Shown here piece by piece: positions 51,684 to 52,637 of a stretch of DNA of 64,000 nucleotides; the stretch's first letter is position 1; each line of letters starts with the position of its first letter. This DNA is from Candidatus Babelota bacterium. Lineage in GTDB: Bacteria > Babelota > Babeliae > Babelales > UBA12411. A model generated the notes under the pieces. The model was not told where the DNA came from. It ran no database searches and worked only from the letters and a program-made list of their open reading frames with translations. Position numbers and translations under genes: made by a program. The stretch lies in contig DOJW01000007.1 of the NCBI GenBank assembly GCA_003511165.1, forward strand, positions 148,324-212,323, written 5' to 3'.

Positions 51684-52637
51684 TCACTTCCACATCACAA
51701 ACAAAGCAATTACAAGAGAATAAATAGCAGATGATTCAATAATTGCTTGCGTCATTAAAGTATTTCGCAAAATCAAATTATAATTGTCTGGATTTTCTGC
51801 AATCATTTTACATGCCTTGGATGCAACATAACCAGTCGAAATACCAACTCCAATTGCACCAAATCCCATAGCAATCGCAGCAGCCAAAGAAGAAACAACT
51901 GATGTAAAAAGCAATGAAGAAGATTTGGAATAAATAAGCAAAAATGAAACTATAAAAGAAAAGATAACCGGCGTTTCGATAATCGCCTGACTAAACAAAG
52001 TAAATGGAAAAATTTTACTGTAAGCAGATTTATTTAAACCTATCGAATGACATGCACTTTTGACAAAAATTCCCTGCCCTATCGTTGGCCCAACACAACC
52101 AAATGCGATAACAAGTGCGGCAGCGAAAAGATGCATTCCTTGATAAAGTGAAATCGGATTAACAACAAAAGTTTTAATTATCAAAAAAATTATAAATGCA
52201 AAAATAACTGGTGCTTCAATAATAGATTGTGTAATCAACATAAATGTTGTAATTTTTTGCGCAAAATTGGGTTGACGAAAAATTGATTTGCAAGCTTCTT
52301 TTACCGCCATACTTGATGAAAATCCGACCACAGCCGCAACAAGCCCCATTGCAAATCCACTTCCAAATCTTGCAAGTCCAACTCCCATCGTTGTTGTATC
52401 TTTAGAAATATCAAAAATAGATAAAATTACCGCGACAAATGCTAAAATCGCACCACTTTCTGTTATACCAAGACCTATCATCAACGTTCGAAAGCCTGCT
52501 TCATGTCCCATTTTTTGCCGCTCTAAACCATCAAGTGCACCAAATCCACCAAAACCTTGACCAAAAGCAACACCTAAAGCGCTAAAGATAATTGCAAAAA
52601 TAGGACCTAAGTATGCTAGAATTAGAGGAGTTAACAT
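51684..52637 (-). CDS. atpE: F-type ATP synthase subunit c, four tandem fused c-hairpins (317 aa, ~8 TM)
   Basis: Four ~79-aa units, each with a Gly-rich helix 1, a polar loop (ERQKM / RQPNF / GLNKS / AENPD) and helix 2 with a conserved Glu (GITESGAIL, SIIEAPVIF, AIIETPVIF, AIIESSAIY). Lies immediately downstream of atpB with a 7-nt overlap. Confidence 0.8.
   Translation of the reverse strand: MLTPLILAYLGPIFAIIFSALGVAFGQGFGGFGALDGLERQKMGHEAGFRTLMIGLGITESGAILAFVAVILSIFDISKDTTTMGVGLARFGSGFAMGLVAAVVGFSSSMAVKEACKSIFRQPNFAQKITTFMLITQSIIEAPVIFAFIIFLIIKTFVVNPISLYQGMHLFAAALVIAFGCVGPTIGQGIFVKSACHSIGLNKSAYSKIFPFTLFSQAIIETPVIFSFIVSFLLIYSKSSSLLFTSVVSSLAAAIAMGFGAIGVGISTGYVASKACKMIAENPDNYNLILRNTLMTQAIIESSAIYSLVIALFVMWK

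Follow-up and report, generated by a model that had tools for sequence, protein, structure and literature searches.

The number of hairpins and carboxylates in the rotor ring sets the number of ions moved per ATP in every rotary ATPase, and to our knowledge it is still unclear what fixes the ring number in F-type enzymes. Stoichiometry and symmetry mismatch have been probed with engineered c subunit fusions; E. coli c2, c3 and c4 fusions (Jones & Fillingame 1998; Jiang et al. 2001) and Bacillus PS3 c2, c5 and c10 fusions (Mitome et al. 2004) are reportedly functional. In these constructs the C-terminus of one copy is linked to the N-terminus of the next on the periplasmic side, giving working rings of constrained stoichiometry.

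Fused hairpins also occur naturally. The only characterized natural F-type multi-hairpin c subunit is c1 of the Na+ enzyme of Acetobacterium woodii (PDB 4bem chain J), which is encoded after an F-type atpB, consists of two hairpins with one carboxylate and acts as a single copy among nine single-hairpin c2/3 subunits in a hybrid c1(c2/3)9 ring (PMC9171764). In the archaeal enzymes, which have an A-type stator and head, the A1Ao proteolipid of Methanopyrus kandleri fuses 13 hairpins, is presumed to form the whole ring and has a complete ion site in every hairpin (PMC2359735), and the proteolipid of Methanocaldococcus jannaschii is a triple hairpin. Finally, the V-type c/K subunits (Enterococcus hirae NtpK, 2bl2; yeast and mammalian Vo c, c' and c'') are duplicated hairpins of ATP-driven pumps, have one carboxylate per two hairpins and are encoded in V-type operons.

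Here we describe a genuine atpE of Dependentiae (TM6) that encodes one 33-kDa polypeptide with four covalently linked F-type c hairpins, referred to below as c4. It is located in the window, the 64-kb stretch of DNA that we analyzed. Like A. woodii c1, c4 is a natural fused F-type c encoded after an F-type atpB, but it has four hairpins and four carboxylates. It resembles the M. kandleri protein in that the sites per polypeptide equal the number of hairpins, and the M. jannaschii protein in being a multi-hairpin fusion; unlike both it is bacterial and F-type with an F-type a subunit, and whereas the M. kandleri fusion is taken for a whole ring, c4 would be only part of one. The engineered fusions are made of identical repeats, while c4 is a natural and ancient fusion whose four hairpins have diverged and are no longer equivalent; it is a natural counterpart of these constructs. 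We found no paper on a natural bacterial F-type c4 among open-access papers and bioRxiv preprints. The initial annotation, which knew of no described bacterial F-type c4 fusion, took the fusion to be more unusual than it is: multi-hairpin F-type c proteins in general are abundant in metagenomes.

Architecture and family of the c4 protein

The 317-aa ORF is free of internal stops or frameshifts. The PF00137 ATP-synt_C model matches it in four non-overlapping stretches (E=1.8e-39, 134 bits, cut-off 24), and the boundaries given by a custom hairpin HMM lie within a few residues of those in the initial annotation, which had read the gene as four fused F-type c hairpins. The features of the locus are listed in Table 1. 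The helix-2 glutamates E60, E141, E221 and E301 all align with the Glu position in the hairpin HMM, within the motifs ITESG (58-62), IIEAP (139-143), IIETP (219-223) and IIESS (299-303) that had been quoted earlier. An AlphaFold2 model from a 92-sequence alignment contains eight long helices that form four hairpins (pLDDT 96.1, pTM 0.93), with a kink at Pro143 in helix 4.

Table 1 Features of the c4 locus; positions are those of the window and hairpin units were delimited with the custom hairpin HMM
Feature	Position	Strand	Basis or remark
Small hydrophobic ORF, 100 aa	53498..53800	-	directly upstream of atpB
atpB (F-type Fo subunit a)	52631..53491	-	PF00119, E=2e-32, full-length match 1-217/217
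Shine-Dalgarno-like AAGGAAG	52642..52648	-	in atpB 3' end, 4 nt upstream of c4 ATG
atpE (c4, 317 aa, four fused F-type c hairpins)	51684..52637	-	stop codon 51684-51686; PF00137; AlphaFold2
Hairpin unit 1 (aa 1-79)	52401..52637	-	HMM domain 1-79, E=1.5e-19
Hairpin unit 2 (aa 80-160)	52158..52400	-	HMM domain 81-159, E=3e-28
Hairpin unit 3 (aa 161-240)	51918..52157	-	HMM domain 161-240, E=1.1e-34
Hairpin unit 4 (aa 241-317)	51687..51917	-	HMM domain 241-317, E=2.9e-29
Intrinsic terminator AAAAGGCG-TTT-CGCCTTTT + T-run	51650..51678	-	begins 5 nt past c4 stop

Each unit has its own combination of helix-1 residue, loop and helix-2 motif, and the helix-1 differences (Q27, S108, Q188 and T268 in units 1-4) are as the initial annotation gave them. 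Unit 1 has a GxGxGQG helix 1 that includes Q27, the loop LERQK (family consensus RQP) and E60-S61 in helix 2. In unit 2 the helix-1 Gln is replaced by S108, the loop is R121-Q122-P123 and helix 2 carries E141-A142-P143. Unit 3 combines Q188 with the loop G200-L-N202-K and the helix-2 residues E221-T222-P223..F226, while unit 4 combines T268 with the loop ENPDNY and E301-S302-S303..Y306. Unit 4 is the closest of the four to Na+-type c subunits; its likeness to the Ilyobacter tartaricus c subunit (1yce), noted in the initial annotation, was recovered with E=6.4e-9 ('...qaiiessaiyslvialfvmw' in c4 and '...qavaestgiyslvialilly' in I. tartaricus).

The units share ~25-45% identity with each other, with 16-27 identical residues per local alignment of 60-71 columns. 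TRF found no DNA tandem repeat in the c4 gene, and the best DNA repeat within it has 63-72% identity over 57 nt. By mean BLOSUM score the most similar pairs are units 3-4 and units 2-3. An origin of c4 by two rounds of duplication, for which unit 1 is expected to resemble unit 3 and unit 2 to resemble unit 4, was considered and rejected, as that pattern is absent; the sequences are too short to order the duplications.

Since V/A-type enzymes typically have proteolipids with several fused hairpins, we asked which ATPase family c4 belongs to. The V-type K models of NCBIfam do match c4, at 17-51 bits against cut-offs of 101-188, and the N-ATPase c model TIGR03322 reaches 99.3 against a cut-off of 130.85. 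A V/A-type or N-type identity is nonetheless very improbable. The best NCBIfam matches are the full-length F0F1 c equivalogs, which score just under their cut-offs (115 vs 116 and 114 vs 122), and TIGR01260 lies above its own (57 vs 44). Moreover, c4 adjoins a PF00119 F-type a subunit and not a V-type a/I subunit, the N-ATPase a model TIGR03306 gives this neighbor 93.5 against a cut-off of 302.1, and the locus does not show the gene order of the N-ATPase operon, atpDCQRBEFAG. Because the neighboring a subunit is F-type, the F0F1 c models match best and A. woodii c1 is the closest solved relative, we assign c4 from its sequence to the F-type and not the V/A-type enzymes. It is a member of the F-type c domain family that lacks the canonical architecture of a single hairpin (about 70-90 aa).

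A. woodii c1 is the best match to c4 in sequence (E=2e-17, to units 3-4) as well as in fold, with an rmsd of 1.6 Å over two hairpins and a TM score, normalized to c1, of 0.77. The V-type c/K subunits overlay on the c4 model with TM scores of 0.77-0.86 (normalized to the target, over two hairpins), but they are two-hairpin proteins. The rmsd to the subunit of the 11-hairpin A. woodii ring (1.6 Å) is lower than that to subunits of the 20-hairpin V-type ring (2.2-3 Å), but this comparison is too strongly confounded by sequence similarity to bear on the ring size of c4.

Conservation across Dependentiae and the four ion sites

Fifteen contigs in JGI, NCBI and Logan assemblies encode an identical c4 protein. 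We collected 115 homologs, down to ~30% identity; 107 of them span the full length (300-330 aa), and ~100 fall between 305 and 330 aa; clustering at 50% identity gave 147 c4-like clusters with E<=1e-30. Full-length orthologs were found in 77 GTDB species-representative genomes and all 77 loci were confirmed. The named species among them are Dependentiae, Babeliales or TM6, and the rest carry generic or 'Pseudomonadota' titles. Vermiphilus pyriformis and Dependentiae Noda2021, whose genomes are complete, are among the 77. The survey of atpE lengths proposed in the initial annotation gave ~310-335 aa as the norm in the 77 Dependentiae species representatives. We also considered that the gene might be a pseudogene or an assembly artifact, with a collapsed tandem array of atpE or separate genes falsely joined by sequencing errors, as in the refuting scenario of the initial annotation. 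Nothing spoke for this, and it is practically excluded by the diverged units (25-45% protein identity), by the lack of a DNA tandem repeat in the TRF analysis, by the recurrence of the identical ORF in 15 contigs of different assembly origin, by the four-unit architecture in 77 species and by the strong selective constraint on the catalytic residues described below.

The residues of the helix-2 motifs are conserved in a position-specific manner. E60 of unit 1 is found in 107/107 homologs and in 77/78 species, and E221, T222, P223 and F226 of unit 3 are invariant (78/78). In unit 4, position 301 is Glu in 36 species and Asp in 42, and Y306 is present in all 78. In unit 2, position 141 is Glu in 25 species, Gln in 45 and Met in 8, and it covaries with position 142, such that E-A is found in one group and Q/M-T in the other. 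The claim of the initial annotation that all units retain the Glu is therefore correct for this c4, which with 24 related species has four carboxylates, but it extends to only 25 of the 78 species, as a sister clade (53/78) has Gln or Met in unit 2. Single units share 36-49% identity across species. Most species retain an RQP-type loop in units 1 and 2, and units 3 and 4 have conserved loops of their own. Taken together, these patterns indicate that the catalytic residues of c4 are under strong purifying selection and that the four hairpins arose as copies long ago and have since diverged, each under position-specific conservation throughout the phylum. Such conservation would amount to a phylum-wide genetic constraint, with four hairpins per polypeptide and, according to clade, three or four sites that are active.

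To describe the ion sites we used the known Na+ ligand set, in which Gln/Glu32 and Glu65 come from one hairpin and Ser/Thr66 (and Tyr70) from its neighbor (PMC2359735). By analogy with E. hirae NtpK, each c4 site was read as the Glu and the helix-1 residue of unit n together with the residues of unit n-1 at the positions for Ser/Thr and Tyr. Because of this composition the four sites are predicted to differ. The unit-1 site would combine Q27/E60 with S302/Y306 of the preceding unit 4, a full Na+ ligand set. The unit-2 site (S108/E141 with S61/L65) and the unit-4 site (T268/E301 with T222/F226) would each have a partial set, and the unit-3 site (Q188/E221 with A142/F146) would have neither the Ser/Thr nor the Tyr. 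The non-equivalence of the sites proposed in the initial annotation holds, but the ligands are to be read across adjacent units and not within one. On this reading the complete Na+ motif would arise only at the junction between two c4 molecules, and the sequence leaves the coupling ion ambiguous. Counting carboxylate-bearing sites, one c4 would carry four ions in the clade of this window and three in the larger sister clade with Gln or Met in unit 2. The latter parallels the loss of carboxylates in some hairpins of V-type subunits.

Gene neighborhood and the proposed F1 partner

Directly upstream of c4 lies atpB, which encodes the stator subunit with the ion half-channels and has its essential Arg at R173 in the motif SFRLFGN. 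The stop of atpB and the start of c4 overlap by 7 nt, as read from the sequence, which suggests translational coupling, and the AGGA core of the Shine-Dalgarno-like site is 6 nt upstream of the c4 ATG. The 100-aa ORF on the other side of atpB matches PF03899 ATP-synt_I weakly (E=0.013, 16.3 bits, under the cut-off of 25.1), and a gene of similar size is called at the same position in three further loci (L001, L002 and L003); it may, tentatively, encode an AtpI-like assembly factor. The terminator after c4 has no terminator-like counterpart elsewhere in 51400-54400, and the arrangement of the three genes indicates a short atpI-like/atpB/atpE operon closed by it. By tblastn, an a-subunit gene was found in 82/84 c4-holding sequences, and it is directly upstream of c4 in every locus inspected.

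The remaining subunits are not encoded nearby. In 83 Dependentiae loci we found no gene for an F1 subunit (alpha, beta, gamma, delta or epsilon) or for b within 10 kb of c4, there is none in the window when it is extended by 10 kb on each side (~84 kb), and a tblastn search of the 84 sequences with the full F1Fo protein set of locus L006 returned a and c only. The 975-nt gap downstream of c4, at 50709-51683, was considered as a remnant of degraded atpF or F1 genes, and this was rejected, as tblastn detected no atp similarity there. The gap contains a dispersed repeat with further copies elsewhere in the window; Rfam gave nothing at E<=1 and ARAGORN no tRNA or tmRNA in it.

This isolation of the locus raises the question of whether a and c4 form an orphan Fo, for example a gated ion channel or a rotor coupled in some other way, with the F1 genes lost or diverged in an ATP-importing parasite. 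The self-contained three-gene unit with its own terminator, the absence of F1 and b genes near c4 and the fact that these organisms do not need ATP synthesis would all fit. We regard it as improbable, however, since analyses of TM6 genomes report ATP synthase among the core functions or in all genomes studied (PMC4776705, PMC6561590), a split into atpBE and atpFHAGDC is common in bacteria and the locus has been split repeatedly (PMC4154653), an a-c ring without coupling is normally a harmful ion leak, and units 1 and 2 keep the cytoplasmic RQP loops that contact gamma and epsilon. We propose instead that c4 probably works with an F1 whose genes lie in another part of the genome; the basis for this partnership is the general statements in the two TM6 papers.

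Rotor composition and the proposed pump

To examine whether c4 shares its ring with other c subunits, we scanned the 83 Dependentiae loci (~20 kb each) with the hairpin HMM. Each contains exactly one c gene, with four domains, and in none did the scan detect a single-hairpin c gene within ~10 kb of c4. As positive controls we used two loci from outside Dependentiae with multi-hairpin F-type c genes, L005 and L006, and in both a single-hairpin c gene was found immediately downstream.

Multi-hairpin F-type c proteins of Desulfobacterota have six hairpins (P0063), five (P0108) or four (324-aa forms), are encoded directly after atpB and align to most of the c4 length at ~30% identity. They keep one carboxylate, with the helix-2 pattern EQQQ, EQQQQ or EQQQQQ in 108/118. 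In the one Desulfobacterota locus examined (L005, with P0063) the multi-hairpin gene precedes a single-hairpin c and an atpF-like gene, and the related locus L006 (P0111, helix-2 residues EEQQ) has the same arrangement together with a full F1 operon. This arrangement extends the hybrid principle of A. woodii and appears to be undescribed in the literature.

An analogous hybrid rotor in Dependentiae, in which c4 is a minority among single-hairpin c subunits encoded elsewhere, would free the ring size from the multiples-of-four rule. The precedent is c1, at once the best sequence and structure match to c4 and the sole characterized case, and the single-hairpin c genes that follow the fusions in L005 and L006 point the same way. 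We nevertheless consider such a rotor rather unlikely for c4. In hybrid-type loci the second c gene is immediately adjacent, whereas the 83 Dependentiae loci have none; no short c-like protein occurs among the 115 c4 homolog matches; and c4 proteins keep three or four carboxylates, compared to one in two hairpins of A. woodii c1 and one in four to six in Desulfobacterota. The loss of carboxylates that marks the multi-hairpin subunit of the A. woodii-type hybrid rotor is not seen in the c4 of this window.

Because no second c gene is present at the 83 Dependentiae loci, unlike in L005 and L006, we favor a rotor ring made of c4 alone, belonging to an F1Fo enzyme whose F1 is encoded elsewhere and which acts mainly as an ATP-driven pump; we give this reading as a whole a probability of roughly 70%. 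In this model two, three or four copies of c4 would assemble into a ring of 8, 12 or 16 hairpins, which would rotate against Arg173 of subunit a in the usual manner and be driven by the distant F1. The rule of ring sizes in multiples of four, put forward in the initial annotation, would hold for such a ring and is consistent with the absence of other c genes within 10 kb at the 83 loci, but it fails if a single-hairpin c joins. In a c4-only ring the ion/ATP ratio would be discrete and heritable. The fusion would make the hairpin number a genetic constant and leave each hairpin free to specialize.

The pump role is proposed because Dependentiae have no electron transport chain and take up ATP from their hosts. 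All TM6 genomes analyzed by Yeoh et al. 2016 (PMC4776705) contain an ATP synthase and ATP/ADP translocases and are without an electron transport chain. In such cells the enzyme would, in line with proposals in published genome analyses, be mainly an ATP-driven pump of H+ (or Na+) that sustains the membrane potential. If these organisms do run the enzyme in pump mode, c4 would offer a possible parallel to the hairpin duplication and carboxylate loss that gave rise to V-ATPases.

Among the possible ring sizes we weakly prefer three copies of c4. It is conceivable, although we hold it only as a tentative view, that these 12 hairpins form a ring with three-fold symmetry matching that of F1, with an ion/ATP ratio of 4 in the EEEE clade, to which the c4 of this window belongs, or of 3 in the E[Q/M]E[D/E] clade. 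If so, each ATP would move one c4 past the stator, and the gene itself would set a whole-number ion/ATP ratio. Dependentiae would then offer a natural example of an F-type motor with matched symmetry, whose two gear ratios are set genetically, and of a dedicated ATP-driven pump whose origin is independent of V-ATPases. The c4 proteins are now annotated as 'hypothetical' or plainly as 'subunit c'. Metabolic reconstructions of Dependentiae, and of Desulfobacterota with their single-Glu c proteins of four to six hairpins, therefore overlook an unusual bioenergetic trait.

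Four c-subunit hairpins in one atpE product

The initial annotation read atpE as a fusion of four F-type c-subunit hairpins, and this reading holds at the level of the gene, the domains and the predicted fold. The open reading frame is intact, and ATP-synt_C is found in four separate stretches of its product, hereafter c4 (Pfam; E = 1.8e-39; 134 bits, cut-off 24). A hairpin HMM built from the c4 family itself places the units at residues 1–79, 81–159, 161–240 and 241–317, with E-values per unit between 1e-19 and 1e-34. All of the motifs quoted earlier are present, and the helix-2 carboxylates are Glu60, Glu141, Glu221 and Glu301. 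The AlphaFold2 model (alignment of 92 sequences; pLDDT 96.1, pTM 0.93) predicts eight long helices forming four hairpins joined by linkers of ~6 residues. The units are mutually diverged, with 16–27 identities over 60–71 columns in local alignments of unit against unit; TRF detects no tandem DNA repeat in atpE, and the best DNA repeat inside it reaches just 63–72% identity across 57 nt. A 90-residue ORF on the opposite strand is most likely a spurious reading opposite a Gly/Ala-rich gene.

Features of the window and of two multi-hairpin loci outside Dependentiae (L005, L006; own coordinates)
Feature	Position	Strand	Remarks
atpE (c4)	51684–52637	minus	317 aa
atpB, F-type a subunit	52631–53491	minus	PF00119, E = 2e-32; essential Arg in SFRLFGN
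ORF antisense to atpE	52288–52560	plus	90 aa, Pro/Ala/Ser-rich
Gap between atpE terminator and mutS, with repeat	50709–51683		gap of 975 nt
Gap repeat, copies elsewhere	14513–14882; 43255–43673; 6216–6266		dispersed, intergenic
IS200/IS605-type Y1 transposase ORF	6402–6872	minus	PF01797 on the corresponding gene of locus L084
Pseudopilin-like gene cluster	9671–13208	minus	
GIY-YIG-like ORF	34207–35103	plus	
Tandem paralogue 1	45021–46265	plus	HELGHK
Tandem paralogue 2	46291–48069	plus	HEWGHK
L005, multi-hairpin c	4462–5907		481-aa member of the 4–6-hairpin family described below
L005, single-hairpin c	6007–6255		
L006, four-hairpin protein	7677–8639		two Glu
L006, single-hairpin c	8727–8984		

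The sequence matches identify c4 as an F-type subunit. Its top NCBIfam matches are F0F1 c models (~115 bits), while V-type K models score 17–51 bits against cut-offs of 101–188 and the N-ATPase c and a models fall far under theirs, which refutes a V/A-type or N-type identity. Among solved proteins, c4 is closest to the F-type c1 of Acetobacterium woodii, which has two hairpins (sequence E = 2e-17; fold rmsd 1.6 Å), and neither sequence nor fold comparison found a four-hairpin chain in the PDB. Searches of the open-access full-text literature found no account of an F-type c4 occurring naturally in bacteria.

Conservation and carboxylate pattern across Dependentiae

An identical c4 protein, named 'hypothetical protein, Candidatus Dependentiae bacterium' by NCBI, occurs on 15 contigs among JGI, NCBI and Logan assemblies. 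A word-indexed search returned 115 homologues with identity reaching down to ~30%, about 100 of them 305–330 aa long, and 1.84 billion cluster representatives scanned exhaustively with HMMER yielded 147 clusters at E ≤ 1e-30, almost all within the same length range. Scanning a single genome for each GTDB species gave 77 loci, each with a near-full-length orthologue. Their named records are Dependentiae, Babeliales or TM6, among them Vermiphilus pyriformis (CP074345.1) and Dependentiae Noda2021 (AP025250.1), both complete genomes, and a Chromulinivoraceae MAG; the c4 genes of several 'uncultured Pseudomonadota' or 'bacterium' records group inside the same family. Because the protein recurs identically on 15 contigs and has orthologues at 77 species loci, the four-hairpin atpE is the usual form of the gene in the phylum, and a misassembly or one-off artefact is refuted.

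The retention of Glu in all four units, claimed from the window, is true of the window protein but does not extend to the phylum. Among 78 species (the 77 and the window), the helix-2 residues of units 1–4 read EQED in 32, EEEE in 24, EQEE in 12, EMED in 8, and DQED and EEED in one each. A midpoint-rooted NJ tree divides the family into two deep clades. The clade with the window is EEEE throughout; in the larger one, which contains Vermiphilus, Noda2021 and the Chromulinivoraceae MAG, the unit 2 residue is Gln or Met in every member but one, and the unit 4 residue is mostly Asp instead of Glu (Asp in 42/78 species). Positions 141 and 142 covary (E-A versus Q/M-T), and the unit 1 Glu and the unit 3 E-T-P..F are invariant or near-invariant. 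Thus, the phylum shows two fixed states, with four and three carboxylates per four hairpins, respectively.

The known Na+ site combines Gln32 and Glu65 of one hairpin with Ser66, Tyr70 and the carbonyl of Val63 from its neighbour; for the K subunit of E. hirae, a duplicated protein, that neighbour is the preceding hairpin (PMC2359735). Assigning the c4 sites by analogy with the latter, as unit n plus the preceding unit, gives different ligand sets for all four, so that the sites are indeed non-equivalent, as first proposed. The unit 1 site (Gln27, Glu60, with Ser302, Ser303 and Tyr306 from unit 4 of the adjacent c4) has complete Na+ ligands. Those of unit 2 (Ser108, Glu141, with Ser61 and Leu65 from unit 1) and unit 4 (Thr268, Glu301, with Thr222 and Phe226 from unit 3) are partial, and that of unit 3 (Gln188, Glu221, with Ala142 and Phe146 from unit 2) has neither Ser/Thr nor Tyr. 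Since every site must carry the same ion, H+ is a safer guess than Na+ for the coupling ion. The cytoplasmic loops of units 1 and 2 are RQP-like in the family consensus (LERQK in window unit 1), that of unit 3 is G-x-N-K-x-A-Y and that of unit 4 N-P-x-N-Y. Each unit's loop type is conserved between species, which indicates position-specific selection.

Operon context and probable composition of the c-ring

The c4 start sits 7 nt inside the end of atpB, with an AAGGAAG ribosome-binding site 4 nt upstream, an arrangement suggesting that its translation is coupled to that of a competent a subunit. A hydrophobic ORF of 100 aa directly upstream of atpB matches AtpI weakly, below the threshold. A clean intrinsic terminator begins 5 nt past the c4 stop, the 975 nt downstream of it hold no atp remnants, and mutS follows this gap. 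In tblastn searches of 84 sequences with a complete F1Fo protein set, a and c were present in essentially all, and alpha, beta, gamma, delta, epsilon and b were absent near every Dependentiae c4; no F1 genes lie in the 64-kb window or within 10 kb past each end. This isolation fits an orphan Fo module lacking F1. That reading conflicts with the literature, in which all TM6 genomes studied encode ATP synthase and ATP/ADP translocases without an electron transport chain (Yeoh et al., PMC4776705), and with the conservation of the gamma/epsilon-contacting loops.

Multi-hairpin c subunits also occur outside Dependentiae. A search with a 481-aa relative gave >1,800 matches. The 118 proteins analysed, from a family that includes database proteins P0116–P0232, have 4, 5 or 6 hairpins and lengths of about 324, 405 and 485 aa, respectively; their source-named members are Desulfobacterales or Thermodesulfobacteriota, and in 108/118 the only Glu retained is that of hairpin 1 (EQQQ, EQQQQ or EQQQQQ). 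We found no paper describing this family, which takes an A. woodii-like hybrid rotor much further. Metagenomic proteins with Glu in every hairpin include P0295 (434 aa, 5 hairpins), P0322 (524 aa, 7) and the Trp-rich P0243 (968 aa, 13), the last recalling the 13-hairpin proteolipid of Methanopyrus kandleri. Given the 4–6-hairpin family and these 5-, 7- and 13-hairpin proteins, natural multi-hairpin F-type c subunits are widespread; among them, it is the Dependentiae form that retains most or all of its sites and has no single-hairpin c beside it.

The main alternative to a ring of c4 only is a hybrid ring in the A. woodii style, with a single-hairpin c encoded elsewhere. We disfavour it, as a single c gene, four-domain in every case, is present at each of the 83 Dependentiae loci and a single-hairpin one at none, whereas at both multi-hairpin loci examined outside the phylum a single-hairpin c and atpF lie immediately downstream (L006 additionally holds a full F1 operon). 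c4 is thus likely the sole ring component. A ring built from c4 alone would therefore contain 8, 12 or 16 hairpins. With the three catalytic steps of F1, a (c4)3 ring would carry 4 ions per ATP for the window protein and 3 for the sister clade, and a (c4)2 ring 2.7 and 2, respectively. Deeg et al. (PMC6561590) proposed that membrane potential is maintained by the synthase working in reverse; neither they nor Yeoh et al. (PMC4776705) mention a fused c. A dedicated pump that multiplied its hairpins and dropped a carboxylate in one clade would parallel the origin of V-type proteolipids (PMC9171764). The domain, the hairpin-fusion principle and the rotary mechanism are already known. The novel elements are a four-hairpin F-type subunit with three or four of its sites active, its fixation throughout the phylum and its likely role as the only component of the ring. 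c4 would surprise specialists, and through it the determinants of ring stoichiometry can be tested in a natural system.

Other features of the window

The gap downstream of atpE holds a dispersed intergenic repeat that matches 14697–14882 at 88% identity over 186 nt, two segments at 43255–43655 at 73–80% and the third copy at 94% over 51 nt. It has GC-rich patches that reach 62% GC, against 32% for the genome, and no Rfam match; the repeat could be MITE-like or REP-like. The Y1 transposase ORF lies ~140 nt from the third copy. The tandem paralogues have nearly identical signal-peptide-like N-termini (MKMLKKLILLLSLFTANLNVLSA and MKILKKLILLLGLLTAGLNDLSA), an HExxH-like motif and no Pfam match on record; they may be secreted metallopeptidase-like effectors. 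By eye, a further ORF shows a GIY-YIG-like core, YVYITCSKKNGTLYIGMTNDLTRRMQEHK, flanked by several peptide repeats (PRHPRE(C/L)... and FLDPRIREDD), which suggest a repeat element or mobile nuclease gene. Also by eye, the pseudopilin-like cluster encodes N-terminal FTLIE/FSLLE prepilin motifs and a GspF/PilC-like membrane protein, and matches the type II secretion/type IV pilus system reported to be core to TM6 genomes (PMC4776705).
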